Origin: Candidatus Saccharibacteria bacterium UBA1103
Lineage (GTDB): Bacteria; Patescibacteriota; Saccharimonadia; Saccharimonadales; Saccharimonadaceae
Length of the DNA: 64,000 bases
NCBI GenBank assembly: GCA_002313515.1
Contig: DCBQ01000005.1
Coordinates: forward strand, 16,240-80,239
Direction of reading: 5' to 3'
Part shown: piece by piece, positions 391-60,967 of the stretch
Position numbering within the stretch: position 1 is the stretch's first letter
Layout: every line of letters begins with the position of its first letter
The notes under the pieces: generated by a model
What the model was told of the DNA's origin: nothing
Databases searched by the model: none
What the model saw: only the letters and a program-made list of their open reading frames with translations
Position numbers and translations under genes: made by a program

Positions 391-413
391 GAGATATTAT
401 TTAATTAACTAGA

Positions 414-540
414 GTCCCCACCTATAAAGGTGGGGCAAGCAGTGGCAACAGCCACGCTGGGGTGGTTTTATTCGCTTCTCTTAAAATCAAATTTCACCTC
501 ACCCGGCGTAGACGCCTGCCCTCCCCGTCAAGGGGAGGGA
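414..540. repeat. Convergent pair of two-hairpin palindromic elements
   Basis: (+) copy 414-469: CCCCACC-TATAAA-GGTGGGG, GTGGC-AACA-GCCAC, GCTGGGGTGG tail. (-) copy 493-540: CCCTCCCC-GTCA-AGGGGAGGG plus GGCG-TAGA-CGCC. Confidence 0.8.
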
Positions 541-546
541 ATAAAA

Positions 547-2335: not shown

Positions 2336-4204
2336 ATGTACTACGCAAGTGGTAATTACGACGCCTTTGTGCGACCAAAGAAGCCAGAGGGTGTCGATAA
2401 TAAACATGCTTATATTATAGGTACTGGTCTAGCAGCCTTGGCCGCGGCAGTAGTACTGGTGCGTGACGCGCAGATGCCGGGCAAGAACATTCACATTTTT
2501 GAGAAGGATGAACTACCAGGCGGTGCTTGTGACGGTCGGGAAATTCAAGGCATTGGTTATGTCATGCGTGGTGGTCGCGAGCTAGATAACCACTATGAGG
2601 TGCTATATGATATCCTTCATTCCATTCCGTCACTAGAACGCAAGAACGCCAGCGTGCTGGATGAGTTATATTGGCTGAACCGCGAAGATCCCAACTTCAC
2701 CATGTGTCGCGCCACTGAAGAGCAGGGCAAGCCGGCTGTTGATGGTAAATTTGGCCTGAGTGATAAGGCGGCTATGGAAATCATGGCACTCTTCTTTACG
2801 CCAAATGAAAAGCTGTACAACAAGCGCATTGATGAAGTCTTTGACGATGAGGTCTTTAAATCCAACTTCTGGCTATACTGGCGTACCATGTTCGCCTTTG
2901 AGAACTGGCACTCTGCGCTCGAGATGAAGCTGTATATTAAAAGGTTTATTCACCATGTATCGGGTCTACCGGACTTTACAGCACTACGCTTTAGCCGTTA
3001 TAACCAGTACGAATCATTCATTCTGCCGATGGTCAAATACCTAGAGAAGGCGGGTGTACAGTTCCACTACAACACCAAGGTTAACGACGTCAAGATTGAA
3101 GTTGGCGGTCAGCGTGTAGCTAAGCGTCCACGCTCGAGTGTTGGTGAGGATACTATTTTGCGTATTCAACAAGAGCAGTTCCCGCGTAATCCGTATAGCA
3201 CGGACATCAAGAAGGTAGCTAAAGCCATTGTCATCGCCGATGCAGGTGGCGAGCATACTATTGACCTAACCGAGGACGACTACCTGTTTATTACACCGGG
3301 TGGTTGTGTGGAGAACGCTACTATTGGTTCGCAGAACGAGCCAGCAGCCTGGAACCCGGATCTAAAGCAGGGCGGTGGCTGGGACATGTGGCGCCGCATT
3401 GCCAAGCAAGATAAATCCTTTGGTCATCCAGATAAGTTCTGCTACGACCCAGAAGCCAGTAAGTGGATGAGTGCCACGGTGACGACCTTGGACAACGAGA
3501 TTCCGCCGTATATTCAGAATATTTGCCGCCGCGATCCGTTTAGCGGCCGCACGGTTACTGGCGGTATAGTATCAGTCAAGGATTCGAATTGGCTAATGAG
3601 CTGGACGCTAAATCGCCAGCAGCAGTTTAAGGATCAGCCGAAGAACCAATTGAGCGTATGGGTCTACGGTCTATTTCCTGATCAGCCAGGCAATTACGTC
3701 AAGAAACCAATGCGTGAATGTACTGGTAAAGAGATTTGTGAAGAATGGCTGTATCATCTAGGTGTGCCAGTTGACCGCATTGAAGAACTAGCGACTAATC
3801 ACGCTAACTCGGTGCCAGTGATGATGCCGTATATCGATGCCTTCTTTATGCCGCGTGAAGCGGGCGATCGTCCGGATGTCGTGCCTGATGGGGCAGTGAA
3901 CTTTGCCTTCCTGGGTCAGTTCGCCGAGGAACCGCGTGATGTAATCTTTACTACGGAATACTCAGTGCGTACAGCTATGGAAGCAGTGTATACACTATTC
4001 AATGTTGAGCGCGGCGTGCCGGAGGTCTGGAATAGCACCTATGACGTGCGCGATCTGGTTAATGCCTCGGTTGCCCTGCGTGATGGCCGTAAGTTGACTG
4101 ATATGGATCTGCCGTTTACACAGAAGCTAGTGCTAGAGAAGGTTATCCAAGCCGTTAAGGATACTGATATCGAGAAGCTGCTAAAGGAGTATAAAGCGAT
4201 TTAG
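2336..4204 (+). CDS. ohyA: Oleate hydratase (FAD-dependent fatty-acid hydratase, MCRA family)
   Basis: 622 aa. N-terminus MYYASGNYDAFVRPKKPEG...AYIIGTGLAALAAA (Rossmann GxGxxA) and overall length are typical of MCRA/oleate hydratases. Confidence 0.85.
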   Translation: MYYASGNYDAFVRPKKPEGVDNKHAYIIGTGLAALAAAVVLVRDAQMPGKNIHIFEKDELPGGACDGREIQGIGYVMRGGRELDNHYEVLYDILHSIPSLERKNASVLDELYWLNREDPNFTMCRATEEQGKPAVDGKFGLSDKAAMEIMALFFTPNEKLYNKRIDEVFDDEVFKSNFWLYWRTMFAFENWHSALEMKLYIKRFIHHVSGLPDFTALRFSRYNQYESFILPMVKYLEKAGVQFHYNTKVNDVKIEVGGQRVAKRPRSSVGEDTILRIQQEQFPRNPYSTDIKKVAKAIVIADAGGEHTIDLTEDDYLFITPGGCVENATIGSQNEPAAWNPDLKQGGGWDMWRRIAKQDKSFGHPDKFCYDPEASKWMSATVTTLDNEIPPYIQNICRRDPFSGRTVTGGIVSVKDSNWLMSWTLNRQQQFKDQPKNQLSVWVYGLFPDQPGNYVKKPMRECTGKEICEEWLYHLGVPVDRIEELATNHANSVPVMMPYIDAFFMPREAGDRPDVVPDGAVNFAFLGQFAEEPRDVIFTTEYSVRTAMEAVYTLFNVERGVPEVWNSTYDVRDLVNASVALRDGRKLTDMDLPFTQKLVLEKVIQAVKDTDIEKLLKEYKAI

Positions 4205-4216
4205 CTGTATAGAGAA

Positions 4217-4473
4217 GCCCGCCCCCCATCAGGGGCGAGAAACAGATTCTAATAGTGTCTGCGGCCTATGCTCAGATTTAAAGTCCCGCCCCATCAGGGG
4301 CGTAAGCTGTGACATGCACTACGCGTAAAACTTAAGTCCCGCCCCATCAGGGGCGGGCAAGCTGGTGCGTAGCACCGCTGGGTGGGGTTTGTAAACTCTA
4401 GTTAAACTAACTAATACTACAAACCCCTTCCGTCACGACTACGTCGTGCCACCTTCCCCTGATGGGGAAGGAC
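4217..4473. repeat. Mini-array of three (+) two-hairpin elements plus one convergent (-) copy
   Basis: (+) copies start at 4217, 4283 and 4336; the last is full length and ends GCTGGGTGGGGTTTGT. (-) copy 4419-4473: ACAAACCCC...CCTTCCCC-TGAT-GGGGAAGG. Confidence 0.85.
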
Positions 4474-4605
4474 TTTTGTTATTGACAACTAACACCATTA
4501 TTTCCTAGTGCTTGACAATAAAACATAAACGTGATAGTATTAATAATGTCGAACGAAGATAGAAACGGTTGACAAAGAAGATAGATAAAAACAGAAAGGA
4601 AGATA

Positions 4606-13332: not shown

Positions 13333-13342
13333 TAACTTTAGT

Positions 13343-13398
13343 GTCCCGCCCTAGTGAGGGCGGGCAAGCTGGCGCTTTAGCGCCGCTGGGTGGGTTTG
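13343..13398 (+). repeat. Two-hairpin palindromic element, (+) copy
   Basis: GTCCCGCCC-TAGTGA-GGGCGGGC AAGCTGGCGC-TTTA-GCGCCGCTGGGTGGGTTTGG. It is read through by the over-extended track ORF 13341. Confidence 0.9.
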
Positions 13399-13409
13399 GC
13401 TGTATATGG

Positions 13410-13418
13410 TGCTACAAT
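13410..13418 (+). promoter_or_regulatory. Extended -10 box (TGcTACAAT), 6 nt upstream of polA ATG 13425; leaderless
   Basis: TGCTACAAT-ATACCT-ATG. Confidence 0.55.
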
Positions 13419-13424
13419 ATACCT

Positions 13425-15971
13425 ATGAGTAACCCAACCCTCGCCGGTAATAAGAAAATTTTAGCCCTGATTGATGGTAAGTCCGTCTTTTATCGGGGCT
13501 ATTATGGTATGCCGCACCTTAGCACCAAGGATGGCACGCCGACTGGTGGAGTGTACGGTTTTGCCATGCTGGCTTTGCAACTAATCAATCAGATTAAACC
13601 AGATTACGTGGCGGTGGCGTGGGACAAGCCACATACTAATATCCGTCGCCGTCTAAAAATTTATTCGGGCTACAAGGCTGGACGTAAGCCAGCCCCGCCA
13701 GACTTTTATCAGCAGATTCCGATTCTGCATAAATTACTGGCGGCGCTGGGCTGGCCGTTATACGAGCTGGACGATTACGAGGCCGATGACATTATGGGCA
13801 CGCTAAGTAAACAGGCCAACGAGCAGGGTATTTTTACGGTTATGATCACCTCGGATCTAGATATGTTGCAGCTAATTGATGACGATACTGAGCTGTTCGC
13901 CATGAAGAAAGGGTTGGCTAATATTGAGAAGTTTGATCGCCACGCCTTTGAGGAAAAATACGGCATTAAGGTTGAACAATTTTTGGATCTGAAGGCCCTG
14001 AAGGGAGATAACTCTGATAATATCCCCGGCGTACCCGGCGTGGGTGAAAAAACGGGCATTAAGCTGCTACAAGACTATGGCACGCTGGATGGCGTTTATG
14101 AACATGTGGATGAAGTCAAGGGCAGCTTACACGATAAATTGATTAACGGTCGCAATTCGGCCTACATGTCGCGGGAACTGGGGTTGATTATGTGCGATGC
14201 GCCACTGACCTTAGATTTGAAAGCCATGGATATGCGCAACTTGGACCGGGCCAAACTACATAAGATGCTATTGGACCTCGAGTTTACTAGCCTAATTAAG
14301 AAACTGCCCGACGTCATGCAGGATGACAGCGGTGAGATGGTGACCACTGGCCATACGCTACCGAATACTAAAATTATAGATAGTGAATTGCCGCTCAGCG
14401 AAGTGGTGATGGTGCAGGCAGTAGATGACCAGCTGTACCTCAGTCCCGATAAGGAACGGGCCTATAAGGCTAGTTGGCAGCGGACGGCGGAACTGTTAAA
14501 AGGCAAGCGGGTAATTACCCATGACGCTAAGAAATTAGCTGAACAATTTCTGTCTCGCAACCTTGATGTTAATTGGACGGTAGAATTTGACACCAAGCAT
14601 GCTCAGTTTTTGATTAATTCCTTGAACGGCAGCCGGGAACTTAGTGAAATCGTGGCCGATCTAAAGCCAACCTCCGCTACCACGACTGACCAGCTAGCTA
14701 CCGTATGGATGCTATATAACGAGCTGTCACCCGAACTAGCCAAACTAACTAAATTAAATGACCTGGCGCATAATGTGGATTTTCCGCTGCAGCTACTGCT
14801 GGCGAAAATTGAGGCGCGGGGGATGTTAGTGGACACGGCGCAGCTGGCTAAAATGTCGGACGACTTGGACGGGCGGATTAATGATCTGCAGTCACAGATA
14901 TGGCAGGGCGTGGGTTATGAATTTAATATTGGCAGCCCGAAGCAGCTATCCGAGGCGCTCTTTGATAAGCTCGGTCTACCGGCCACTAAGAAGCGCAATA
15001 AGAGTGGCTTCTACCCCACGGGCGCCAAGGAGCTGGCTAAGTTGCACGGTGCTAATCCGGTAATTGAACTGATTGAGCAGTACCGGATGCTAACCAAACT
15101 AAAGTCCACCTATATCGACACATTACCGAAAGCGGTCGGCCTTGACGGGCGGATTCATACCACCTTTAGTCAGGACGTGACGGCGACGGGACGGTTGTCG
15201 TCCTCTAATCCAAATCTACAAAATATCCCCAGTCGTACCGCCGAGGGTAAGGAAATTAAAAAATGCTTTGTAGCGCCGGCGGGGCGGGTAATCGTAAATG
15301 CCGATTATGCCCAGTTCGAGCTACGGCTCGCAACCGCACTGGCACATGATCAACGCATGATCGAGATGTTCAGCGATGACCGTAACGATATTCACCGTAT
15401 GACTGCCGCCGAGGCATACGGTATTCCGGTGGACCAGGTGACGGATGAGCAGCGGCGCCATGCTAAGGTGATTAACTTTGGTGTGCTATACGGCATGAGT
15501 CCGCACGGCCTGGCCGAGGCGACCGGTATGGATTTTGGTGCGGCTAAAAAATTTATTGACCGCTACTTCGCTGTGCGTCAACCGATTCGGGACTACCTGG
15601 ATCAGACCCTTGAAATGGCGGCGGAGCAGGGCTGCGTGGAGACGCTGTTTGGCCGGCGCCGTCCAACCCCCGATGTGAAATCGAGCAACTTCATGGTACG
15701 CGAGGCGGCCAAGCGGGCGGCGGCCAACATGCCGATTCAGGGCACCGAGGCCGATCTAATGAAAATGGCGATGCTAAGGGTTGAGGCGGCCCTACCAGAT
15801 ACAGCCCTGCAGGTCATGCAGGTGCACGATTCCATCATGGTGGAATGTGACGAAGTGGACGCGCCAGAAATCGCCGCCCAGATGAAGCAAATCATGGAAA
15901 ATATCTATCCAGCCCTCGGCGTCCGCCTACTTGTCGATGCTCAGTGGGGTCCCAGCTGGGGAAATCTATGA
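13425..15971 (+). CDS. polA: DNA polymerase I
   Basis: 5' nuclease domain (..KILALIDGKSVFYRGYY..), a central exo-like domain, and family A polymerase motifs (..DYAQFELRLA.., ..AKVINFGVLYGM.., ..QVHDSIMVE..). Start moved from 13341 to 13425. Confidence 0.9.
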   Translation: MSNPTLAGNKKILALIDGKSVFYRGYYGMPHLSTKDGTPTGGVYGFAMLALQLINQIKPDYVAVAWDKPHTNIRRRLKIYSGYKAGRKPAPPDFYQQIPILHKLLAALGWPLYELDDYEADDIMGTLSKQANEQGIFTVMITSDLDMLQLIDDDTELFAMKKGLANIEKFDRHAFEEKYGIKVEQFLDLKALKGDNSDNIPGVPGVGEKTGIKLLQDYGTLDGVYEHVDEVKGSLHDKLINGRNSAYMSRELGLIMCDAPLTLDLKAMDMRNLDRAKLHKMLLDLEFTSLIKKLPDVMQDDSGEMVTTGHTLPNTKIIDSELPLSEVVMVQAVDDQLYLSPDKERAYKASWQRTAELLKGKRVITHDAKKLAEQFLSRNLDVNWTVEFDTKHAQFLINSLNGSRELSEIVADLKPTSATTTDQLATVWMLYNELSPELAKLTKLNDLAHNVDFPLQLLLAKIEARGMLVDTAQLAKMSDDLDGRINDLQSQIWQGVGYEFNIGSPKQLSEALFDKLGLPATKKRNKSGFYPTGAKELAKLHGANPVIELIEQYRMLTKLKSTYIDTLPKAVGLDGRIHTTFSQDVTATGRLSSSNPNLQNIPSRTAEGKEIKKCFVAPAGRVIVNADYAQFELRLATALAHDQRMIEMFSDDRNDIHRMTAAEAYGIPVDQVTDEQRRHAKVINFGVLYGMSPHGLAEATGMDFGAAKKFIDRYFAVRQPIRDYLDQTLEMAAEQGCVETLFGRRRPTPDVKSSNFMVREAAKRAAANMPIQGTEADLMKMAMLRVEAALPDTALQVMQVHDSIMVECDEVDAPEIAAQMKQIMENIYPALGVRLLVDAQWGPSWGNL

Positions 15972-16958: not shown

Positions 16959-17537
16959 ATGAAAATTAAAGCTTTACTATTCGATAACTTTGGCGTACTG
17001 ATGGATCCGGTTTATGATACTTTTTGCGAGACCGTTCCGAAGGATGTCTTTGACCAGATTGTGGCGGCGGGACGGCTGTCGGATGCTGGGAAGATTACTA
17101 ATGACGAGCGCAACTTGCTGATGCGGGCGATTCTACAGCCATTAGGCCGAGACGCTGCACAAGAGATTGAGGCGGCGATGGGCCGATCAAAGCGCAACCA
17201 GAAATTATTTGAGTTTATAGAGGCGCACCGCAAGCAGTATAAAATGGCGATTGTGTCAAACGCCTCGGCTAACGTACTGGAGCTATATAAGGGCGTCGAC
17301 CTGAATAAATATTTTGATCAAGTGATTTGGTCGTATCAGGTGAAGGAAATTAAGCCGGAGCCGGAGATTTACCGTTTGGCGGCGGAGCGGCTAGGTGTAC
17401 AGCCTGACGAATGCGTCTTTATCGACGACCGGCAAAGTAATGTCGATGGTGCGGTGACGGCCGGCATGAAGGGAATCCAGTACCGCGATTTTGAACAGTT
17501 CAAGGCGGATCTAGCGAAGTTAGAGCAGGAGGACTAG
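16959..17537 (+). CDS. HAD-superfamily hydrolase (subfamily IA-like)
   Basis: 192 aa. Motif I-like LLFDNFGVL, ..AIVSNAS.., and C-terminal ..VFIDDRQSNVDGA... SD GGAGGG upstream. Confidence 0.7.
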   Translation: MKIKALLFDNFGVLMDPVYDTFCETVPKDVFDQIVAAGRLSDAGKITNDERNLLMRAILQPLGRDAAQEIEAAMGRSKRNQKLFEFIEAHRKQYKMAIVSNASANVLELYKGVDLNKYFDQVIWSYQVKEIKPEPEIYRLAAERLGVQPDECVFIDDRQSNVDGAVTAGMKGIQYRDFEQFKADLAKLEQED

Positions 17538-18575
17538 GTGCCAGAACTGCCCGAAGTCGAAACGGTGCGACGGGGCCTGAATAAGTTTATTGTTGGCCGA
17601 ACGATTAGGGATATTACAGTACTAAATGAAAAGTCGTTTGACGCTAGCGCTAGCGATCGGGCGGCGTTAATTGGCGCCAGGGTTGTGGGCGTGCGACGGC
17701 GGGGTAAGCTGCTGATTATTGATCTCAATAACCCCACCGGCTCGGCTACGCCGACCCACCTCCCCCTGACAGGGGAGGACAAAAATTCTGAGCCCCGCCC
17801 TGATTCAATGAAGATGCAGGAGGCCGAGTACTTGACAGGCGAAGCTGAGTCCCGCCCCGCCAAGGGCGGGCAAGCAGGCGACTTAGTCGCCGCTGGGTGG
17901 GTTTCTCTGCTTTGCCATCTGAAAATGACTGGCCAAATGGTATATCGGGGTGAAGACAGCTGGGGCGCGGGACATCCGAACGAGTCCTTCGTGGGCGAGC
18001 TGCCGGACCGTTCCACCCGCGTAATCTTTACCTTCGATGACGGCTCCAAACTATTCTTCAATGACCAGCGTAAATTTGGCCGCATCCTGTTCTGGCCGAC
18101 TGATGACGTAAATAACTTTCCTTTCATTAAAAAGCTCGGCCCAGAGCCATTTAACGACGATGGCCTAACGGAATTTCTAAAGCGCGCTAAACGACACCAA
18201 AACGCCCCGATTAAGGCGGTAATCTTGGATCAGTCGGTGGTGGCAGGTATCGGCAATATCTACGCCGACGAGGCGCTGTGGCTAGCAAAAATCCACCCAG
18301 CTACCAGGGTAAAAGATTTATCCGACGCGCAATTGACTGCCATCTATCATGCGGCGGGGCAGGTGATGACTAAATCGATTGAATCAGGTGGTTCCTCAAT
18401 GAAAAATTACGTAAAGGCTGACGGCAGCCGGGGCGATTACCTGGATAACTTTGCCAAAGTTTTTAATCGGACCGGCCAACCTTGCGAACGCTGCGGCACG
18501 GAAATCGTCAAGACCCGCGTAGCTGGCCGCGGCACCCACATCTGCCCGCGGTGCCAGCAGGAGTATCGTCGTTAA
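17538..18575 (+). CDS. mutM: Formamidopyrimidine-DNA glycosylase with a ~60-aa in-frame repeat-derived insertion
   Basis: GTG start gives MPELPEVE. H2TH (..VVAGIGNIYADEALW..) and zinc finger CERCG...CPRCQ are present. An insertion at 17727-17906 separates RRGKLLIIDL from LLCHLKMTG. Confidence 0.85.
   Translation: MPELPEVETVRRGLNKFIVGRTIRDITVLNEKSFDASASDRAALIGARVVGVRRRGKLLIIDLNNPTGSATPTHLPLTGEDKNSEPRPDSMKMQEAEYLTGEAESRPAKGGQAGDLVAAGWVSLLCHLKMTGQMVYRGEDSWGAGHPNESFVGELPDRSTRVIFTFDDGSKLFFNDQRKFGRILFWPTDDVNNFPFIKKLGPEPFNDDGLTEFLKRAKRHQNAPIKAVILDQSVVAGIGNIYADEALWLAKIHPATRVKDLSDAQLTAIYHAAGQVMTKSIESGGSSMKNYVKADGSRGDYLDNFAKVFNRTGQPCERCGTEIVKTRVAGRGTHICPRCQQEYRR
17729..17903. repeat. Composite of two-hairpin palindromic elements inside the fpg coding frame
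   Basis: (-) copy 17729-17780 (AACCCCACC...CCTCCCC-CTGAC-AGGGGAGG), partial hairpin 17791-17805, and full (+) copy 17848-17903 (GTCCCGCCCC-GCCAA-GGGCGGGC...GCCGCTGGGTGGGTTT). Confidence 0.85.
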
Positions 18576-30291: not shown

Positions 30292-30292
30292 A

Positions 30293-30352
30293 GTCCCGCC
30301 CTATAAAGGGCGGGCAAGCAGGCGTGATAGCGCCGCTGGGTGGGTTTTATTC
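30293..30352 (+). repeat. Two-hairpin palindromic element, (+) copy, between convergent tlyA and ychF
   Basis: GTCCCGCCC-TATAAA-GGGCGGGC AAGCAGGCG-TGATA-GCGCCGCTGGGTGGGTTTTATTCACTTCT. Confidence 0.9.
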
Positions 30353-31587: not shown

Positions 31588-32631
31588 ATGAATTTTGGGA
31601 AGTCGGTGGGTAGCTTCTTTAGCCTCGATATCGGAACAGCCGCGGTTCGTGCGATCGAGTTGGCTCACTCTAATAGCGGTTGGAACCTACTGCATTATGG
31701 CGTTAAGCCAATAGATGTGCGGCTAAGTGAGTCGACAGCCGACGCGGATCGGCGTGCGCTGGGCATTGCGATTACCGATGTGATTTCGCAGGCTGGCATC
31801 AAGAGTAAGAAGGTCGCAATCGGTGTTCCCTCAAATAAGATGTTTTCATCGGTAGTAGAGATTCCTACAGTCTCGCGCCAGGAAATGAATGCTACGATTA
31901 AATACCAGGCAGAAAACTACGTACCAATGCGTGCTGATGAAGCTAAAATTGACTGGGCTATAATTGGCCAATCAGTTAATGACCCACAGAATACTGAAGT
32001 GCTGATTGCAGCTGTACAAAATAGCTATACAGAATCGCGATTAGATCTAATTGAAGGTCTCGGACTAGATGTAATCGCAATTGAACCTGAATCACTGGCA
32101 ATTGTTCGTTCCTTGCTACCAGATGGTGTAACTGACGGACGTATGATTATCGATATGGGCGATCGAGCTACTGATATTATTTTGACTATTGGATCGGCGC
32201 CACGCCTAATTCGTTCGGTGCCAATTGGCTTTAGCACCTTTGTACGTATGGCTAAACAGAATCTGAACATCGAGATGCAGCAAGCACGTCAACTTATATT
32301 GAAATTCGGCCTCAATCCCAATAACTTGGAGGGGCAGATTGTGCGGGCGGTTCAGCCAGCGGTTGATCAACTCAAGTCGGAGCTTGTAAAGTCCTTAAAG
32401 TACTTTACGGCTAAGTACCCCAAGTCATCTATTGGTGGCACGCTTATTAGTGGTTACGTATCTGTCCTGCCGGGATTCTCAGATATAATTGCCGGTTCTA
32501 CTAATACGCAGGTACAGATTGCCACCCCATGGCAGCATGTTAACGTACCAGCTTCGGCACAGGCTGGTTTGGCGCCAATTAGCTCGCAACTAGCAGTGGC
32601 GGTTGGTCTAGCAGAAAGGACGGGTCTATAA
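31588..32631 (+). CDS. pilM: Type IV pilus assembly protein PilM (actin-like ATPase fold)
   Basis: 347 aa. ..FSLDIGTAAVRAIEL.. at the N-terminus. First gene of the pilMNO-type block. Confidence 0.8.
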   Translation: MNFGKSVGSFFSLDIGTAAVRAIELAHSNSGWNLLHYGVKPIDVRLSESTADADRRALGIAITDVISQAGIKSKKVAIGVPSNKMFSSVVEIPTVSRQEMNATIKYQAENYVPMRADEAKIDWAIIGQSVNDPQNTEVLIAAVQNSYTESRLDLIEGLGLDVIAIEPESLAIVRSLLPDGVTDGRMIIDMGDRATDIILTIGSAPRLIRSVPIGFSTFVRMAKQNLNIEMQQARQLILKFGLNPNNLEGQIVRAVQPAVDQLKSELVKSLKYFTAKYPKSSIGGTLISGYVSVLPGFSDIIAGSTNTQVQIATPWQHVNVPASAQAGLAPISSQLAVAVGLAERTGL

Positions 32632-32632
32632 A

Positions 32633-33511
32633 ATGTCAGTTCCACAATTAAATTTATTACCTGACGTAAAAAAAGATCTAATCAAAGCGCAGATTCTCCG
32701 TAATCTGACGGTTAGTGTTAGCTTTATTATAGTCTGCGTGGCTGGCGGCATTATATTTCTGATGCTGAGCTGGTGGGGCGTATCTGTTGGCTTGAAGGCT
32801 GTTTCTGAAGGTAATATCAAGAAGTACGAAAACCAGATTAAGAGCGCTCAGAACGATAAGAACAAGAGTCTCAATGAATATCTAACGATTCAGAACGACC
32901 TTAGTCAAATAGCCAGCGTGAAGAGCCAGCAGGAGCAAATGTCACGGATCTTTCAATATATCCTGTCGGTTAGTCCTGCAGGGCGTAACTACATGACGAT
33001 TAGCTCAATGAAGGTTAGCGGCAGTGCGGCGGCGACGTCTGATACAGATACAAGTCAGACAGGTACGATTGTAGTTGAGGGTCGTACTGTAGATTACGCA
33101 GCACTAGATGTAATCAAGCTGACTATGCAACGAGCTAAGATTGAGTATACGGAGGGTGATGATAGCTCAGCCGACGGTGACTCGAGTAACTCGAGCGAAA
33201 ATTCAGACGGCTCGAGTAATAGTACTAAAACAGCTAAACTCTTCACGAATGTACAATTAAGTGGTGTTACTATGTCTGGTGATTCAGGTGATCAGGGTGG
33301 TAGAGTTGGCTTTACCCTGACTTTAACGTATAACCCAGTATCTTTAGCTTATACAACCAAGAATGCGAAGGTTGTTGTGCCAAAGGAAACTATTTCTGAC
33401 TCCCGCGAGAATACTCCTGGCGTAGATAATAGTGCAAATAGCAGTAAGCCACTATTTAACGGTACATCTCAGGATGGTAAGGATAATAGCAAGGAGGGGT
33501 CGAATGAGTAG
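32633..33511 (+). CDS. pilN: PilN-like pilus assembly protein with a Ser/Asp-rich linker
   Basis: N-terminal ..QLNLLPDVKK.. followed by a TM helix is typical of PilN. Low-complexity DSSADGDSSNSSENSDGSSNS segment. Confidence 0.6.
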   Translation: MSVPQLNLLPDVKKDLIKAQILRNLTVSVSFIIVCVAGGIIFLMLSWWGVSVGLKAVSEGNIKKYENQIKSAQNDKNKSLNEYLTIQNDLSQIASVKSQQEQMSRIFQYILSVSPAGRNYMTISSMKVSGSAAATSDTDTSQTGTIVVEGRTVDYAALDVIKLTMQRAKIEYTEGDDSSADGDSSNSSENSDGSSNSTKTAKLFTNVQLSGVTMSGDSGDQGGRVGFTLTLTYNPVSLAYTTKNAKVVVPKETISDSRENTPGVDNSANSSKPLFNGTSQDGKDNSKEGSNE

Positions 33512-34232
33512 TGATGGCAAGTCATTAACTGGCGTACGTAAGCGTCAACAGATCGATAGCACTCGTAAGCAGGTAGTATTTTGGGTTGCTGCGGCTGGTT
33601 GCTGCGTTGTAATTGCACTGATTGCTGGCGTGCGTCTGTGGCAAAAGATTCAGTACCAGAACAAGGTTAATAGTCAGCTGCAAACAGCTGAGAAGACTCT
33701 AAAGTCTAACGTTTCTGCAATAGATTTAATTCGTACTAATGTTGACGCTCTAAAGTCAAATGAACAGCTAAACCTATCGCAATTAAAATCTGACGACCAG
33801 TCGCCACTGCAGGTAGTTTTGGATGCTATGCCAACTCAGGATAACCGCGTAGCACTTGGCTCAGCTTTGCAGGATAAGGTTCTATCGCTGCACGGTGCAA
33901 CTATTCAGAGTTTGACGGTAGTTTCCGACGATACCTCATCGTCATCTACGGATACTACGACGTCTAGTGACTCTTCCTCTAGCTCTTCCACTGGCGGGTC
34001 TAGCTTGAATGTTGCGGCAGTGCCGATCGAATTCTCCGTTGAACTATCTGGAGACTATAATTCGATTCAGAAGACGGTTGAAGATATGGAACGGTCAATT
34101 CGTACAATTATTATTAATAGTATGACGATTGATGGTACAGACGATAAGCTATCGGCTAAAATTGTGGCTACAACCTATTATACGCCAAAGATTAACTATA
34201 AGACGTCGACAACTGAGGTGAAGGAGGATTAA
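33504..34232 (+). CDS. pilO: PilO-like pilus assembly protein
   Basis: Start moved to MSSDGKSL (SD AAGGAGGGG; overlaps the pilN stop). TM, coiled coil, S/T-rich linker, C-terminal domain. The call rests on position and architecture. Confidence 0.5.
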   Translation: MSSDGKSLTGVRKRQQIDSTRKQVVFWVAAAGCCVVIALIAGVRLWQKIQYQNKVNSQLQTAEKTLKSNVSAIDLIRTNVDALKSNEQLNLSQLKSDDQSPLQVVLDAMPTQDNRVALGSALQDKVLSLHGATIQSLTVVSDDTSSSSTDTTTSSDSSSSSSTGGSSLNVAAVPIEFSVELSGDYNSIQKTVEDMERSIRTIIINSMTIDGTDDKLSAKIVATTYYTPKINYKTSTTEVKED

Positions 34233-34233
34233 T

Positions 34234-34488
34234 ATGAAGAAATCAGATATTGCATTAATTGTCTTGATCGTCGGTATCGTTGGGTTTATTGCTTATTATG
34301 CAATTGATATGGTGCTACCACCAGTCAGTAAGTCTTTACAGTCGGTGCCTAAGGCTGACGCCTTTAGTACATCTATTGTTGATCCTGATAAATCAGTGTT
34401 CAACGAAAATGGTATTAATCCGACAGTTGAGTCGACTATCGGTAGTGACGGCTCTAGTACTCAGGTATTTAAAACGGGAGATGAATAG
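34234..34488 (+). CDS. Small single-TM protein in the pilus operon
   Basis: 84 aa with N-terminal TM IALIVLIVGIVGFIAYYAI. Tightly packed between the pilO-like gene and pilB. Confidence 0.5.
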   Translation: MKKSDIALIVLIVGIVGFIAYYAIDMVLPPVSKSLQSVPKADAFSTSIVDPDKSVFNENGINPTVESTIGSDGSSTQVFKTGDE

Positions 34489-34490
34489 CT

Positions 34491-36257
34491 GTGGCGATCT
34501 TAACGGATGAATCTCGACAGAAGATCGAGCAGTACTTCGTTGAGAATGGTGAGCTAACTGAGGACCAGCTAGAAGAATTAAAGAAGCGCGCAAGAGACGC
34601 TGATGAGCCGCTCATTACCTTAATGATTAATGAGCGGGTTATTAATGACGAGCAGTTAACCGAGGCTACCTCGCATGTCACAGGTGTACCTTATGTCAAC
34701 CTATCGCGGGCAGTTATCGATACGAAAATTTTAAATCTGCTGCCGATGGAGACAGCACAACGCTTCATGGCAGTGCCGCTTGGAGAAACAGCTGAGGGTG
34801 GAGCTAAGCGGTTGGCCGTGGCCATGCTGGATGCTAACAACGTTCAGGCGGTGGACTTCCTATCGAACACCATTGGCCGACCAATTAAAGTTTATCTGGC
34901 TTCGGAATCGGGTATAAATAACGTCCTTGCGCAGTATCACATGGATGTTGACCCGACGTTGCAGAATGATGCAACGGCGGAGGCTAAGGCTAAGCTTGCT
35001 AACGTACGTACGATTGTGCAGGATTCGCCGATTTCACGCATTTTGACGCAGTTACTAGAATATGCTCAGCGCTCGCGCGCATCTGATATTCATATTGAGC
35101 CAACCGAGACCAAATTAGTCATTCGTATGCGTATCGATGGTGTATTGCGTGTGGTAATGGAATTACCAAAGTCGGTCGAGGCAGCGTTAATTTCGCGTAT
35201 TAAGATTTTGTCTAACCTAAAAATCGACGAGCACCGCAAGCCTCAGGATGGTGAGTTTACGGTAATGGTCGGTGATAAAGAGGTGGACCTTCGTATTGCT
35301 ATTTCGCCGGTGATTTGGGGTGAGCAGGTGGTGATTCGTTTGCTAGATAAGTCAGGCTCGAGCTTTAAGCTAGAGGACATGGGCTACGCTGGACGGGCAT
35401 TAAGGGCGATTCGTCGGGGTATTAAGAGACCGAACGGTATGGTTCTAACCTCTGGTCCGACTGGTTCAGGTAAGTCTACTTCTTTGTATGCCTTGGTGCA
35501 GGAGATTTATAGCGAACAAATTAACATTATAACCCTAGAGGACCCAGTCGAATATAAGATGAACGGTGTCAACCAGATTCAGGTGAACCCAGCTGCTGGT
35601 TTGACGTTCTCGTCTGGTTTGCGTTCGATTCTGCGTTTGGACCCAGATGTGATTCTAGTGGGTGAAATTCGTGATGCTGAGACTGCTAATTTGGCGGTGC
35701 AAGCGGCTTTGACGGGACACTTGGTCTTCTCGACGCTTCACACTAACTCAGCTGCAGGTATTTTGCCACGTCTTCTAGATATGGGCATTGAGCCGTTCTT
35801 GATCGCCTCGACCATTAATACGGTGATTGGTCAGCGCTTGGTGCGTCGCAATGGTACAGATCGTGAGACCTATACTAGCAGTAAAGTTGAGACCGAACAG
35901 ATTAACGACAAAGTGGGCTATCTACTACCTAAGAATAGTAGCGAGGTTGCTGCAGTTGAGGAAGATTTAGGCTACAAAGGATTGCCGCTATCTGGGCAAG
36001 GATCATATAAGTTAACCAAAGGTATAGATAGTAAGAGCCAGCCGGGTGGCTATAAAGGACGTATGGGTCTATACGAGGTGATTGAGATCTCTGAAGAAAT
36101 TCAACAGCTAATTATTAAACACGCGACCTCTAGTCAAATTCAGCGTCTGGCGGTGGCACAGGGGATGATCCCGATGCAAATGGATGGCTATCTAAAGGCT
36201 TTGACTGGCAAAACTACCATTGAAGAAGTAAACCGCGTAGCTGGTGGTATAGCATAA
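34491..36257 (+). CDS. pilB: Type IV pilus assembly (extension) ATPase PilB/GspE family
   Basis: 588 aa. T2SSE N-domain, Walker A SGPTGSGKST, Asp box, Walker B ..DPDVILVGEIRD.. and His box ..TGHLVFSTLHTN... Confidence 0.9.
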   Translation: MAILTDESRQKIEQYFVENGELTEDQLEELKKRARDADEPLITLMINERVINDEQLTEATSHVTGVPYVNLSRAVIDTKILNLLPMETAQRFMAVPLGETAEGGAKRLAVAMLDANNVQAVDFLSNTIGRPIKVYLASESGINNVLAQYHMDVDPTLQNDATAEAKAKLANVRTIVQDSPISRILTQLLEYAQRSRASDIHIEPTETKLVIRMRIDGVLRVVMELPKSVEAALISRIKILSNLKIDEHRKPQDGEFTVMVGDKEVDLRIAISPVIWGEQVVIRLLDKSGSSFKLEDMGYAGRALRAIRRGIKRPNGMVLTSGPTGSGKSTSLYALVQEIYSEQINIITLEDPVEYKMNGVNQIQVNPAAGLTFSSGLRSILRLDPDVILVGEIRDAETANLAVQAALTGHLVFSTLHTNSAAGILPRLLDMGIEPFLIASTINTVIGQRLVRRNGTDRETYTSSKVETEQINDKVGYLLPKNSSEVAAVEEDLGYKGLPLSGQGSYKLTKGIDSKSQPGGYKGRMGLYEVIEISEEIQQLIIKHATSSQIQRLAVAQGMIPMQMDGYLKALTGKTTIEEVNRVAGGIA

Positions 36258-36301
36258 AGCATAAGTGTGATGATACAATAGAGACAAAATAGGGAGGGTA
36301 T

Positions 36302-37366
36302 ATGGATAGTATAAGAATTGAGATGTTGCTACAAGAGGTGATTAATCAGCATGCCTCGGATCTGCATATTCAGGTTGGCTTACCGCCAATGCTAAGGGTT
36401 GATGGGGCATTGGCACCAATTGCCAATACGCCAACATTAACTCCCGAGATGACGGAAAATCTAATTTTTAGTATTTTGGACGCTGATCAGCAGCAGATTC
36501 TGTTGAAGGATAAGGAATTTGACTTCTCGTTCTCATTTGGTGACTTAGGGCGTTTTCGTGTTAATGCCTTTCACGAGCGAGGCAATATAGCAGGGGCCTT
36601 TCGTCTTATTCCTAACGAGATGCCAACCATCGAGGAGCTGGGCTTGCCAAACGTGGTATCAACTTTTGCGAACTTTCCGCGCGGCTTAGTTTTGGTGACG
36701 GGTCCAACCGGTTCCGGTAAGTCAACTACGCTTGCCGCCCTGATTGATAAAATCAACACCGAAAAGGCTGAGCATATCATCACTATCGAGGATCCAATCG
36801 AGTTTACGCACAAGTCGAAACGTTCAGTCGTTGTGCAGCGCGAAGTACACTATGATACCTATTCATTTAATGCAGCTCTTCGTAGTGCCTTGCGCGAGGA
36901 TCCTGATATCGTCCTGATTGGTGAGATGCGTGACCTTGAAACGATTTCAGCAGCTATAACCATTGCTGAAACAGGTCACTTGGTGTTCGCAACCCTACAC
37001 ACTAACAGTGCATCACAGTCGATAGACCGTATGGTAAATGTCTTTCCACCACATCAGCAGCCACAGATTAAGGCACAGTTGGGCAATATTTTGCAGGCTA
37101 TTTGTTCACAGCGCCTGATTCCGGCCATCGGCGGCGGTCGTGTGGTGGCGGCGGAAATTCTGATCGCTAACGCGGCGGTGCGTAACATTATTCGCGAAGG
37201 CAAGACGCATCAGTTGGATGCGGTGATTCAGACCTCGGCTCGCGAGGGTATGCAGTCGATGGACCGTACGCTAGCCGAGCTAGTGCACAGCGGTCAAATT
37301 ACCTTCGACGAGGCTAAGAATTACGCTGTAGATATAGAGGAATTTGAGAGAATAATGAGGGGGTAG
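36302..37366 (+). CDS. pilT: Type IV pilus retraction ATPase PilT
   Basis: 354 aa. ..ASDLHI.., Walker A TGPTGSGKST, ..DPDIVLIGEMRD.., ..TGHLVFATLHTNSA.. and the AIRNLIREgK-like motif (AAVRNIIREGK). Confidence 0.9.
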   Translation: MDSIRIEMLLQEVINQHASDLHIQVGLPPMLRVDGALAPIANTPTLTPEMTENLIFSILDADQQQILLKDKEFDFSFSFGDLGRFRVNAFHERGNIAGAFRLIPNEMPTIEELGLPNVVSTFANFPRGLVLVTGPTGSGKSTTLAALIDKINTEKAEHIITIEDPIEFTHKSKRSVVVQREVHYDTYSFNAALRSALREDPDIVLIGEMRDLETISAAITIAETGHLVFATLHTNSASQSIDRMVNVFPPHQQPQIKAQLGNILQAICSQRLIPAIGGGRVVAAEILIANAAVRNIIREGKTHQLDAVIQTSAREGMQSMDRTLAELVHSGQITFDEAKNYAVDIEEFERIMRG

Positions 37367-37372
37367 TAGTAA

Positions 37373-38578
37373 ATGTTATCATATAAGTACAAAGCTCGCG
37401 ATACTGCTAGCAATAAAATTGTCAGTTCGACTATCCAAGCGAGTTCTGAGTCGGCTGCGGCACGTCTATTGATGGCGCAGCATATTGTGCCTCTAGAAAT
37501 TAAGCCAGTTGATCAGAGTGGTTTGCTTGCTAAATTGACCAATAAAGTTAGTACTAAGCAACTAGTTATTTTTACACGTCAGCTTTCGACTATGCTGAAC
37601 GCTGGCTTGCCGTTAGCACAGTCACTAACAACTGTGCAGGAGCAGACTAGCAGTGCCGCATTAAAAAACATCGCTGGTGATATTGTCGCTAACATTAACG
37701 GTGGTGCTTCGCTATCATCGTCGATTAAGAAATATCCAGATGTATTCAACAATGTCTATGTAGCTCTGGTGGAGGCAGGTGAGACCTCTGGTACTATGGA
37801 TGAGGCGCTGAATCGACTAGCTAACCAGCTAGAACATGACTCCGATATGTTGGGCAAAATCAAGGGTGCTATGATGTACCCGGCTATCGTGCTAGCAGTT
37901 ATTATCGGCGTGGTGGTGTTTATGCTAGTGTCGCTAGTGCCGCAGGTTAAGAGCCTTTATGACGATATGGGTAAGACTCTGCCGCTACAGACCTTGATCT
38001 TGCAAGCTGTTGCTGATTTCATTATCAAATACTGGTGGCTAACATTGCTAGTGGTTGTTGGTTTGATTATCTTTATTAATCGTTGGAAGAAGACAGATGG
38101 CGGCCGCAAGGCGATTGATACTATGAAGCTTAATGTGCCGCTGTTTGCCACACTGCTGCGTAAGTTATACATGGCGCGCTTCTCGCGTACGATGGAGACG
38201 CTAACTAAGGCAGGTGTGTCTATGCTGGAGTCACTAAAGATTTCGGCCGATGCTGTTAACAATGTAGTCGTCAAAGATGAAATTATGGGTGCGACGAGTA
38301 AAGTAAAAAATGGTAAGTCGCTATCAGAATCGCTATCTAACCAAGACTATATTCTGCCGTTCGTACCGCAGATGATTAAGATCGGTGAAACGTCAGGTGG
38401 TATTGATACGATGTTGGCCAAGGTGGCAGACTATTACGATAAAGAGGTGGACAATGCAATCAACAGTATTTCAACTTTAATTGAGCCAATTCTAATGGTT
38501 CTGATGGCCGGTATGATTGGCTTCATCGTACTAGCTGTGCTACTACCGATTTACACGCTATCAAGTTCGTTGGAATAA
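37373..38578 (+). CDS. pilC: Type IV pilus platform protein PilC (GspF family)
   Basis: 401 aa. Two GspF repeats (..FTRQLSTMLNAGLPL.., ..FSRTMETLTKAGVSM..) and three TM segments. Confidence 0.9.
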   Translation: MLSYKYKARDTASNKIVSSTIQASSESAAARLLMAQHIVPLEIKPVDQSGLLAKLTNKVSTKQLVIFTRQLSTMLNAGLPLAQSLTTVQEQTSSAALKNIAGDIVANINGGASLSSSIKKYPDVFNNVYVALVEAGETSGTMDEALNRLANQLEHDSDMLGKIKGAMMYPAIVLAVIIGVVVFMLVSLVPQVKSLYDDMGKTLPLQTLILQAVADFIIKYWWLTLLVVVGLIIFINRWKKTDGGRKAIDTMKLNVPLFATLLRKLYMARFSRTMETLTKAGVSMLESLKISADAVNNVVVKDEIMGATSKVKNGKSLSESLSNQDYILPFVPQMIKIGETSGGIDTMLAKVADYYDKEVDNAINSISTLIEPILMVLMAGMIGFIVLAVLLPIYTLSSSLE

Positions 38579-38656
38579 TGCTTGCGTTTTTAAATGAACT
38601 GGTATATATTAATGAATGTAAGTTAACTAAAATAAAAGAAAGGGTAGGGAACTTAT

Positions 38657-39172
38657 ATGATTAAAAATCAGAAATCTCAAAAGGGTTTTACCATTATTGA
38701 GGTTGCTCTAGTTTTGGCCGTTGGTGCACTTATCTTCCTAGTGGTGTTCCTAGCTGTGCCTGCACTACAGCGTAACCAGCGTAACGACGCTAGGAAGCGC
38801 GATGCAAGCTCTGTAGCTGAGGCTATTACTAGTTACACGTCAGCAAATCCATCAAAGGCCGTAGATGCCGAAAAGGGTGATGGAAAAATATACGTGGCTG
38901 GAGAAGAAAGCAAGAAGGCAGGTATTGGCCAATTTATTGATACGCTTTCCAATAACACGGATCAGGTCCTATGGAGTGCCGCTACTACAGACATCAACAG
39001 CGTAGGTGATTCTTCGGAGTCAGACAAGAAGAACAGGCTATATGTAGTACCTTCTACACAGTGCGATACTGGCGCTAATACTCTAAAGGCTGGATCCAAG
39101 AAGCAGGCCGCAGTGGTTTACTTTAACGAAACCGCAGGTGGTGTGTCAGCTGCTTGTCAGTCAGTTAACTAG
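38657..39172 (+). CDS. pilA: Type IV pilin (prepilin, major pilin candidate 1)
   Basis: Class III signal MIKNQKSQKG|FTIIEVALVLAV.. with Glu at +5. Own terminator. Confidence 0.85.
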   Translation: MIKNQKSQKGFTIIEVALVLAVGALIFLVVFLAVPALQRNQRNDARKRDASSVAEAITSYTSANPSKAVDAEKGDGKIYVAGEESKKAGIGQFIDTLSNNTDQVLWSAATTDINSVGDSSESDKKNRLYVVPSTQCDTGANTLKAGSKKQAAVVYFNETAGGVSAACQSVN

Positions 39173-39194
39173 TATTAGCTAGGCACAATACCAT

Positions 39195-39221
39195 AAAAAG
39201 AGGGCATTGACCCTCTTTTTT
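39195..39221 (+). terminator. Rho-independent terminator of pilA
   Basis: AAGAGGG-CATTGA-CCCTCTT followed by TTTT. Confidence 0.8.
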
Positions 39222-39235
39222 GTAGCTATGCTGCA

Positions 39236-39403
39236 GTCCCGCCCCCATCAGGGGCGGGCAAGCTGACACATTGATCCCGTAACATCTAACGTCCCGCCCC
39301 ATCAGGGGCGGGCAAGCTGGCGCATCGATGCCCTGCGACATCTAACGTCCCGCCCCATCAGGGGCGGGCAAGCTGGCGCGAAGCGCCGCTGGGTGGGGTT
39401 TGT
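39236..39403 (+). repeat. Tandem mini-array of three (+) two-hairpin elements (period 55-56 bp)
   Basis: GTCCCGCCCC-ATCA-GGGGCGGGCAAGCTG at 39236, 39291 and 39347. Only the last unit carries the full GGCGC-GAA-GCGCCGCTGGGTGGGGTTTGT tail. Confidence 0.9.
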
Positions 39404-39408
39404 AAATA

Positions 39409-39417
39409 TGTTATAAT
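39409..39417 (+). promoter_or_regulatory. Extended -10 box (TGtTATAAT), 6 nt upstream of pilD ATG; leaderless
   Basis: TGTTATAAT-TTACTT-ATG. Confidence 0.6.
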
Positions 39418-39423
39418 TTACTT

Positions 39424-44057: not shown

Positions 44058-44070
44058 GCTGCCGCTACTC

Positions 44071-44119
44071 GAACCCACCGTCAGGCTAATGCCTGTCACC
44101 TCCCTTTGTGAAAGGGGGG
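44071..44119 (-). repeat. Two-hairpin palindromic element, (-) copy, between convergent genes
   Basis: GAACCCACCG TCAGGC-TAAT-GCCTG TCA CCTCCCTTT-GTGA-AAGGGGGG. Confidence 0.8.
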
Positions 44120-44125
44120 TATTTT

Positions 44126-45127: not shown

Positions 45128-45133
45128 AAGCAT

Positions 45134-45142
45134 ATTGTAGCA
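45134..45142 (-). promoter_or_regulatory. Extended -10 box (TGcTACAAT), 6 nt upstream of ATG 45127; leaderless
   Basis: Minus strand reads TGCTACAAT-ATGCTT-ATG. The first ATG abuts the -10 box and is unlikely to be used. Confidence 0.55.
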
Positions 45143-45288
45143 CAATTGCTATTGTCGCGCAATAACGACTTTTTAACGTTTTACGACGTAAGTAATAGAG
45201 GTGACTCAAAAATAATAATCTGTGGAAAACTATCGATGTATTGTGGGTAAATTGGCGCTGTTGGCTATCGAAATGAATATGAGCGTTG

Positions 45289-50732: not shown

Positions 50733-50734
50733 TT

Positions 50735-50790
50735 ACCTCCCTTTCGCAAAGGGAGGTGGGCGAGCTTTAGCTCGGTCGGTGGGTTCGACC
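50735..50790 (+). repeat. Two-hairpin palindromic element, (+) copy, CCTCCCTTT subfamily
   Basis: ACCTCCCTTT-CGCA-AAGGGAGGT GGGCGAGC-TTTA-GCTCG GTCGGTGGGTTCGACC. Confidence 0.8.
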
Positions 50791-60957: not shown

Positions 60958-60967
60958 GCAACTAGCC

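Follow-up and report, generated by a model that had tools for sequence, protein, structure and literature searches.

REP-like palindromic elements in frame in the fpg gene of Saccharibacteria

Rickettsia palindromic elements (RPEs; Ogata et al. 2000 and 2002, summarised in PMC10969869 and PMC3733652) are described as palindromic repeats with a unit of about 100-150 bp, which lie between genes and also in frame within unrelated housekeeping genes. Repetitive extragenic palindromes (REPs) of the GTAG- and CGTC-tagged superfamilies are short stem-loops rich in G/C that lie mostly downstream of open reading frames (ORFs); head-to-head dimers, often heterodimers, predominate, and intragenic REPs occur in many bacteria, more than half of them as head-to-head dimers or groups that encode 20-82 amino acids (Di Nocera et al. 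2013, PMC3733652). The host genes of that survey are enriched in DNA repair and replication (UvrD/REP helicases, RecBCD, PolA) and in RNA-modifying enzymes; its host table includes UvrD/REP helicases and RNA methyltransferases but neither fpg nor another glycosylase, and its phyla are listed without the candidate phyla radiation (CPR) (PMC3733652). Bacterial MITEs, short for miniature inverted-repeat transposable elements, with coding potential include ERIC, BOX, QMITE1, and the Anabaena MITEs (PMC10969869). Here, an insert of palindromic elements is described within the fpg (mutM) gene of Candidatus Saccharibacteria bacterium UBA1103, on a stretch of 64,000 nucleotides of contig DCBQ01000005.1 (positions 16,240 to 80,239), which is referred to as the window and supplies the coordinates below unless another contig is named. 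The insert is an RPE- or REP-like intragenic insertion of a type known elsewhere, and new are the phylum and the host gene fpg; no description of such elements in Saccharibacteria was found among the papers searched.

The locus resembles RPEs in elements that would be translated at places tolerated by the protein fold, in some insertions that are old and shared beside other families that spread in single lineages, and in a host with a reduced genome. In-frame insertion is seen in four length variants and in three host genes, for which translation is the probable consequence. The analogy to RPEs drawn in an earlier note, which was made from the sequence of this stretch, proved apt. In-frame copies of the family also stand at two sites in a TRM11-family methyltransferase gene and in a helicase-nuclease gene. 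The unit differs from RPEs by its length of 54-58 nt and by its occurrence in Saccharibacteria/CPR as opposed to Alphaproteobacteria, and the two apparently have no sequence relationship. They are set apart by size and taxon. The likeness to the REPs of Di Nocera et al. lies in the host genes (fpg, a UvrD/AddA-type helicase, and a TRM11 methyltransferase), in copies 3' of ORFs, and in head-to-head heterodimers.

The insert in fpg and its orthologs

The gene and the parts of its insert are given below. The covariance model R2 was built from 14 copies outside fpg only, so that the fpg copies were scored without circularity.

17538 to 18575, plus strand: fpg/mutM coding sequence (CDS), 345 aa, GTG start (ORF list, Pfam, PDB matches, Foldseek)
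17727 to 17906, plus strand: in-frame insert of 180 nt or 60 codons, residues 64-123 (homolog alignment, AlphaFold2)
17728 to 17781, minus strand: (-) repeat copy of the CCTCCCC subfamily (R2 53.1 bits, E 5.7e-12; alignments A2/A3)
17782 to 17791, plus strand: A-rich spacer AAAATTCTGA that separates the two copies of the head-to-head pair and prolongs the last A of the (-) copy
17792 to 17847, plus strand: middle segment, a decayed 63-nt in-frame tandem duplication across the junction (direct repeat in allele L005)
17848 to 17905, plus strand: (+) repeat copy of the main CCCGCCC family (R2 66.3 bits, E 1.6e-15)

The GTG start of fpg lies directly 3' of the stop of an upstream HAD-hydrolase gene. 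The translation begins with MPELPEVE and carries a CxxC…CxxC motif at its C-terminal end. Pfam assigned Fapy_DNA_glyco, which is split in two, together with H2TH (residues 200-289) and zf-FPG (residues 313-341), and PF01149, PF06831, and PF06827 all exceeded their cut-offs. Sequence matches in the PDB were Fpg/MutM at E of about 1e-50, in two pieces with a break at residue 66. The catalytic dyad after the initiator Met, P2 and E3, is kept and is nearly invariant across 121 homologs, and K57, M130, R178, F180, N240, R331, and the four Cys are retained as well. Outside the insert, the ratio of non-synonymous to synonymous substitution rates (dN/dS) was 0.019-0.048 at dS of 1.2-2.5 over about 280 codons. 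Because of this low ratio and the intact catalytic and zinc-finger residues, fpg is best read as a working gene with strong purifying selection on its core, and a pseudogene, which the earlier note had considered, does not agree with a dN/dS of 0.02-0.05. From the same values and the intact K57, M130, R178, F180, N240, and R331 we infer that the enzyme removes 8-oxoguanine (8-oxoG) and formamidopyrimidine (Fapy) lesions.

The insert stands between IIDL and LLCHL, is a multiple of three in length, and contains no stop in the fpg frame. Among the 120 best homologs, about 115 have a length of 285-300 aa and IIDLSxx joined straight to YSLVIHLKMTGQ, a junction also present in the Fpg of E. coli. 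The earlier note had described E. coli Fpg as having only a short turn at this place and had the Fpg hallmarks of the ORF, the coordinates, the length, the frame, and the encoded peptide of the insert right; the domain matches and the structural comparison given below agree with it. A conserved domain of non-repeat origin, which the note had named as the contrary outcome, was not found, as the segment is lacking from these roughly 115 orthologs and is made of repeats, with R2 recovering both copies of the intergenic family that the note had described.

The repeat unit is about 55 nt long (54-58). It opens with an NGTC tag and hairpin 1, whose arms are named a and a'; a linker leads on to hairpin 2, which is short, and the unit closes with the G-rich segment a''. 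Hairpin 1 has an 8-bp G/C stem and a 4-nt loop, and a'' reads GGGTGGG(G)TT. In the fpg (-) copy, hairpin 1 lies at 17759-17778 and reads CCTCCCCCTGACAGGGGAGG on the plus strand, while the (+) copy has hairpin 1 at 17851-17870, hairpin 2 as GGCGAC-TTA-GTCGCC, and the terminal GGGTGGGTT. The spacer between the copies, 10-11 nt long, reads AAAAAYTCTGA in the window, L005, and L001. The middle segment (about 56 nt) had been described as a partial hairpin; a repeat arm is indeed present, although only the 5' arm GCCCCGCCC is left, and the segment is the remnant of the 63-nt duplication with a 6-nt in-frame deletion relative to L005. In that allele, which is 97% identical, a direct-repeat finder recovered a 36-nt direct repeat of 92% identity at a distance of 63 nt, corresponding to a duplication of 21 codons, which TRF did not detect. 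The ends of the insert are able to pair (17730-17738 with 17896-17904), and RNA across the insert folds at -88.4 kcal/mol compared to -70.2 ± 4.5 kcal/mol for shuffles (z = -4.1). An Rfam scan of the window gave no intron or ribozyme match and no family for the repeat element, and the Pfam scan of Fpg gave no intein or other domain within the insert. An antisense ORF of 197 aa (17534-18127, minus strand) covers the insert in full, along with the 5' half of fpg, and is probably a by-product of the G+C-rich codon structure.

The protein was modelled with AlphaFold2 on an alignment of 121 sequences (predicted template modelling score, pTM, 0.78), and the per-residue confidence (pLDDT) was averaged in blocks of 10 residues. 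Block means were mostly 85-98 in the core, which Foldseek matched to MutM structures with TM scores of 0.87-0.91 normalised to the target; for 3jr5, 1r2y, and 1l1t, the target-normalised score was 0.88-0.91 at E of about 1e-29. Residues 69-119 had pLDDT below 50 and were modelled as coil between strands 58-64 and 122-127. The prediction thus has the insert protruding as a loop from a beta-hairpin turn of a canonical MutM fold, in line with the expectation of the earlier note. Because K57 and M130, which contact DNA in solved Fpg complexes, stand at the far ends of the two strands, about 7 residues off, the turn probably faces away from the cleft that binds DNA, judging by the strand positions.

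An identical protein of 345 aa is encoded by at least 10 contigs of ENA, NCBI, and Logan assemblies, which stem from different samples and assemblers, including an NCBI metagenome-assembled genome (MAG), and since these contigs are independent the insert is not an assembly artefact. The 90% cluster of the protein comprises 29 members of 345 or 347 aa. Syntenic fpg orthologs in three diverged lineages carry the insert at the same site with the same junctions. Its forms are as follows:

L001, syntenic ortholog: 123 nt, the (-)/(+) pair alone with the middle segment wholly missing
Window, fpg of this contig: 180 nt, the pair and the decayed duplication
L005, 97%-identical allele: 186 nt, the pair and a recognisable 63-nt duplication
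L003, syntenic ortholog: 189 nt, the pair and a third copy of a variant subfamily

All four lengths are multiples of three and stop-free, and the indels of 6 nt and 63 nt are in frame, so that the kept frame argues for translation through the insert and against its removal at the RNA level. The middle segment changes fast even between the window and L005. Taken together, these comparisons of sequence indicate that the fpg insert is real, old, and orthologous across the lineages.

The history proposed here is one in which a common ancestor of at least three Saccharibacteria lineages gained a head-to-head pair of REP-like palindromic elements in fpg. The pair would have landed in the turn of a beta-hairpin of the N-terminal beta-sandwich, about 7 residues from K57 and M130 along the strands, and to survive, an insertion would have had to be in frame and free of stops at a turn as permissive as this one. 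Growth would have come later, by the 63-nt in-frame tandem duplication in the window lineage and by a third element in the L003 lineage. Transcription and translation of the insert would yield a surface loop of about 40-63 residues, disordered and rich in Pro, Gly, Ser, and Thr, and would leave the enzyme core unchanged. We regard this account as a whole, from the ancestral element pair to the translated loop on a core under purifying selection, as highly probable. We further infer that the protein is made and active and that the peptide itself is a passenger.

Two further observations concern fpg in related genomes. The homologs P0068 and P0069 carry unrelated inserts of 30-40 aa at a second site, before the DDxxKLFFND strand (alignment A1, columns ~194-232), and peptides of this type occur in Fpg proteins of CPR type (e.g., …VIASGAKQSS…LLCRLKPPRND). 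Presumably they resemble translations of a different class of palindromic repeat, and if they are repeat translations, Fpg may have been invaded independently in other lineages. In the L003 lineage (L002/L003/L004 11109-17990), about 7 kb separate fpg from the RNase J gene, which lie 0.4 kb apart in the window; the segment looks like a mobile island, with genes for an rve integrase, Fic, DUF2268, and a YcaO/nitroreductase protein next to part of a methylase gene.

In-frame copies in other genes

A peptide search with chimeric six-frame translations of the element yielded one extra protein; matches of 19 aa fall below significance among 5.8 billion sequences, and the search is not a census. The protein, P0176, is a TRM11-family methyltransferase of 452 aa compared to about 392 aa in its relatives, and its annotated TRM11 homologs assign the organism to Saccharibacteria (TM7, CPR). 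Its gene (L133 6267-7625, also on L136; L142 3362-4942) contains the element in frame at two sites, namely a (+) copy near codon 25 (site 1, 60.7 bits) and a head-to-head (-)/(+) pair near codon 305 (site 2). In the AlphaFold2 model (pLDDT 86, pTM 0.86), low confidence is confined to the element-encoded residues 25-45 and 304-341. A TRM11 relative at 80% identity, P0177, has a clean empty site 2. Some TRM11 alleles that are 96-98% identical carry an extra 222-nt in-frame cluster of variant units beside the older site-1 copy. Since this cluster is polymorphic among near-identical alleles, the element family is mobile at present and accretes at sites that are already occupied. The otherwise identical genes on L133 and L136 show 26 nucleotide differences in two patches at gene positions 203-268 (17 within 66 nt) and 584-608, which suggests recombination patches within the population.

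A metagenome pattern scan added a UvrD/AddA-type helicase-nuclease of 1142 aa (L135 2302-5730), with a pair in frame at 4151-4268 within UvrD_C. The (-) copy of the helicase is 96% identical to the (-) copy of TRM11 site 2. Read in a different frame in another gene, the same element DNA encodes an unrelated peptide. A further copy (L139 582-640) is found close to the beginning of an ORF for a type I restriction-modification specificity subunit, although the start of this ORF is uncertain.

Conservation of the hairpins and rival explanations

Four-fold degenerate sites of fpg are 51% identical between the window and L001 and 43% identical between the window and L003. Within the outer repeat copies of the insert, the differences at such sites amount to 1 of 25 (window-L001), 0 of 26 (L005-L001), and 1 of 19 (window-L003), compared to 49-57% in the flanks (P = 1e-6, 2e-8, and 2.5e-6, respectively). 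By the Nei-Gojobori method, dS is 0.157 in the outer copies and 1.225 in the flanks, a difference of about 8-fold, while dN is about 0.05 in both. As the 30-nt CDS bins beside the insert lie at background identity (0.63-0.83), a recombination tract is not indicated. The (-) copies of the window and L001 differ by four bases, all of which belong to the loop, and changes in the outer copies fall in hairpin loops and are mostly non-synonymous (LT/SI/PI; PAK/PGE; DLV/DVV/GVV/AS). Hairpin 2 of the (-) copy shows a compensatory exchange in L003, from TCGGC/GCCGA to TCGAC/GTCGA. The conserved part of the insert is thus the hairpin stems and not the peptide. The stems and the G-rich end of the outer copies change far more slowly than synonymous sites of the gene around them, which we read, at about even odds, as selection on a DNA or RNA structure. 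Amiri et al. are said to have found in 2002 that RPEs at orthologous sites drift like neutral sequence, whereas the stems here are about 8-fold more conserved than synonymous sites.

Several points weigh against the proposed account. Translation of the insert and activity of Fpg rest on evolutionary reasoning, and the disorder in the AlphaFold2 model is low confidence only, from an alignment with the insert in just three other rows. The argument from synonymous sites draws on a single locus in three lineages, with 19-27 sites in each comparison, and TRM11 cannot serve as a replicate, because in its sole diverged ortholog (P0177) site 2 is empty and site 1 shows no element that can be recognised. 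A terminator-like reading of the element suits only some intergenic copies and not those in fpg. Gene conversion from paralogs elsewhere in the genome may have acted as well, the sequence seen being the window of about 64 kb and 21 kb per relative of genomes of about 1 Mb.

The last of these points belongs to a model of concerted evolution, in which gene conversion from paralogs, or re-insertion at an occupied hot spot, resets the fpg copies to the consensus. We consider it rather unlikely, although the family is mobile and piles up by existing copies, as in the 222-nt cluster at TRM11 site 1, the TRM11 and helicase (-) copies are 96% identical, as would be expected after recent spread, and the small part of each genome that was seen leaves room for donors. 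The fpg (+) copies of the window, L005, L001, and L003 are 0.89-0.98 identical to each other and only 0.80-0.89 identical to window paralogs, and because they are mutually closest, vertical descent under constraint is favoured over conversion. They also have in common a locus-specific hairpin 2 (…TAGTCGCC), and the fpg (-) copy is without a close paralog in the window, the nearest one (4421-4474) having different stems. Junctions and spacer are shared among the orthologs, and the middle segment at the same locus decays freely. A functional protein module of 60 residues (e.g., a loop for regulation or interaction), which selection on the peptide would maintain and whose repeat origin would be incidental, would explain the retention of the insert in three lineages since before synonymous saturation and the dN of the outer copies (0.05), a value no higher than that of the remaining gene. 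However, the anomalous quantity is dS and not dN, the non-synonymous changes in the hairpin loops run against selection on the peptide, and the middle part differs wholly by lineage, being absent, duplicated, or replaced by a third element. With no structure predicted for the loop and unrelated peptides encoded by the same DNA in other genes, such a module seems very improbable.

Removal or skipping of the insert, by intron-like excision, by translational bypassing as in the GC-rich 'byp' elements of yeast mitochondria, or as an intein, could be argued from the strong folding of the region (z = -4.1), the conservation of stems at synonymous sites, and the pairing of the insert ends. Keeping four lengths (123, 180, 186, and 189 nt) in frame and stop-free, with indels of 6 and 63 nt, would be needless if the segment were removed, and the inserts in TRM11, including its 222-nt polymorphism, and in the helicase are likewise in frame. 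Together with the lack of intron, ribozyme, or intein matches in the Rfam and Pfam scans, this makes removal extremely unlikely. A decaying fpg with the insertion as the inactivating step, or a chimera caused by repeats during assembly, is hardly credible: CPR bacteria have reduced genomes, and assembly from short reads can indeed go wrong at repeats, but the purifying selection over about 280 codons, the catalytic residues, which are all kept, the exact protein on at least 10 contigs, its cluster of 29 members, and the conserved synteny all stand against it.

If selection acts on the stems, the architecture of the unit offers a candidate for its target. Across about 12 stem variants, a'' is a mirror image of the 3' arm a' of hairpin 1 and not a direct copy (e.g., GGGGAAGG / GGAAGGGG, AGGTGGGG / GGGGTGGT, and AAGGGAGGT / CGGTGGGTT for a' and a''). 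The mirror order outscored the direct order in 18 informative copies, fell short of it in one, and tied with it in 14, and the mirror score was 0.96 with a copy's own tail and 0.81 with other tails, with none of 20,000 permutations as high. The pattern is seen at window positions 413-469, 4421-4474, 17728-17781, and 50733-50787 and at L001 16000-16199, among others. In the mirror register, G faces G 64 times, A faces T 14 times, A faces A 8 times, and C faces T twice, the T standing opposite a C-G inversion. In an antiparallel purine-motif triple helix, bases face each other by this code. The unit might accordingly be read as hairpin a:a' with hairpin 2 as the connection and a'' folding back in an intramolecular triplex, or as a four-tract G-quadruplex, which would be kept by host selection inside the CDS and act in cis; we regard this as an unlikely, tentative reading. 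Alternatives to the triplex are a quadruplex formed by the four G tracts of a' and a'' and a weaker, register-shifted Watson-Crick pairing of a with a''. If the structural reading were true, a G-rich fold in fpg and in other genes of nucleic-acid repair or modification might cause pausing of RNA polymerase or of ribosomes, shield the mRNA upstream of it, or serve as a response to oxidised guanine, and the 60-residue loop would be the by-product of a function at the DNA or RNA level.

The family in the window and its affinities

Outside fpg, the family is present at the following places in the window:

413 to 542, both strands: intergenic pair of the variant subfamily, 413-469 (+) and 494-542 (-) (R2)
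4216 to 4474, both strands: intergenic cluster of two truncated units and the full (+) unit 4335-4390, then the (-) unit 4421-4474 (R2)
13342 to 13398, plus strand: intergenic (+) copy between a sigma-70 gene and polA (R2)
30292 to 30348, plus strand: intergenic (+) copy, 1 nt after a stop codon, between convergent genes (R2)
39235 to 39401, plus strand: intergenic tandem array of two truncated units and one full (+) unit (R2)
44070 to 44122: variant copy adjoining the 3' end of the XerC/D-type recombinase gene
50733 to 50787: copy among those with the mirror pattern
60967 to 61079, both strands: head-to-head (-)/(+) pair

All of these copies are intergenic and typically lie 0-15 nt after a stop codon. 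Coding sequence makes up about 89% of the window yet holds just one of the 11 loci (P = 3.5e-9), and this rarity reflects selection against most coding insertions. The position of the rest of the family at the 3' ends of genes suggests a role in mRNA 3'-end stability or termination, and in some intergenic copies hairpin 1 read antisense is followed by a T-run, as in a terminator. An intrinsic terminator thus has partial support only: in fpg, the (-) copy is followed by ACAAAAAT, and a marginal 5-bp match at 17887-17900 is all that was found. Pairs in (-)/(+) order with spacers of 9-12 nt recur in fpg, TRM11, the helicase, and at 60967-61079. The copy at 13342-13398 is missing from the orthologous position in L001 and L003. 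The longest polA ORF (13341-15971, 876 aa) starts within this element; among public gene calls, L127 uses the 876-aa start and others the 848-aa start at about 13425, so that the 876-aa call represents repeat-driven over-extension of ORFs in MAG annotation. The arrays at 4216-4392 and 39235-39401 each comprise three units at a spacing of 53-56 nt, of which the first two are truncated after hairpin 1 or the linker and only the last is complete. Superficially they are CRISPR-like, but their 'spacers' are related to one another. The window further contains a type IV pilus cluster (31588-40257) with PilM, PilB-like MshEN/T2SSE, PilT-like, and PilC-like proteins and a prepilin peptidase, as well as the XerC/D-type tyrosine recombinase gene (44126-45145); such a pilus cluster fits Saccharibacteria.

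The earlier note had asked if the element is selected to be stop-free in one frame, and translation of the copies gave no evidence for it. The fpg frame is open in 11 of 12 copies, compared to about 74% expected from base frequencies, an estimate by composition on which such selection was rejected, and stops come mostly from the conserved TAG in the loop of hairpin 2. A search of genome contigs with the pattern GGGCGGGCAAGCWGG gave, among the matches listed, only chance single matches in unrelated phyla. A pattern with 24 specified bases was found at 7 metagenome loci and had no match in viral contigs.

With regard to described families, the unit comes near the CGTC-1 class of REPs by its 8-bp stem and 4-nt loop (8-9 bp and 4-5 nt in the CGTC superfamily) and perhaps by its NGTC tag, TGTC and CCTC being allowed variants of the unpaired CGTC. 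The GTC of the tag is invariant, with its final C being part of the stem, and the preceding base is C in one of 14 aligned copies (w39346), T in about one third, and A in all others; CGTC also opens the truncated units in the array at 39235-39401. The stem begins with CC…GG and shows compensatory changes at 4 of 8 pairs across subfamilies, and CAAGC or TGG comes after hairpin 1. It differs from CGTC-REPs, which have A-T pairs at stem positions 1-2, in its all-G/C stem, in the lack of a CCA tail, and in some 30 extra nucleotides with the second hairpin and the G-rich end that mirrors the 3' arm of hairpin 1. A (G)TAG was found only in the loop of hairpin 2 and never at the stem base of the aligned copies. 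No HUH/Y1 (RAYT) transposase was present among the precomputed Pfam matches for the window from about 7.5 to 64 kb and the flanks of the relatives, where only the XerC/D-type recombinase and the rve integrase appeared; for both reasons the element is not a GTAG/RAYT REP, as far as the annotated parts go. Bertels & Rainey reportedly described in 2011 REPINs, i.e., REP doublets mobilised by RAYTs. REPINs are also treated in PMC3733652. The present family resembles REPINs in that the mobile or persistent unit is apparently an inverted pair of hairpin repeats with a short spacer, but the pair members here come from different subfamilies and would not form one long hairpin. With MITEs it shares small, non-autonomous repeats and occasional in-frame fusions, while its 3' end mirrors a hairpin arm as opposed to a reverse-complement terminal inverted repeat, and the unit is far shorter. 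Comparison of filled and empty sites gave a doubtful CAAAA repeat at TRM11 site 2 only as a target-site duplication, and none at fpg. Because reverse-complement termini and a clear target duplication are lacking, the element is not a MITE.

The insert extends what has been seen in Rickettsia and in REPs, selfish DNA within proteins, to a very distant branch of bacteria with the tiny, streamlined genomes of the CPR, and fpg joins the list of DNA-repair genes that host such inserts. For annotation, in-frame inserts of this type inflate protein lengths and yield spurious 'novel domains' and extended ORFs in MAGs. A single insertion that is traceable across lineages at synonymous saturation is a natural experiment, and the conservation of its stems, but not of its peptide, bears on whether REP-like elements are parasites only or may also have a function at the level of the host.

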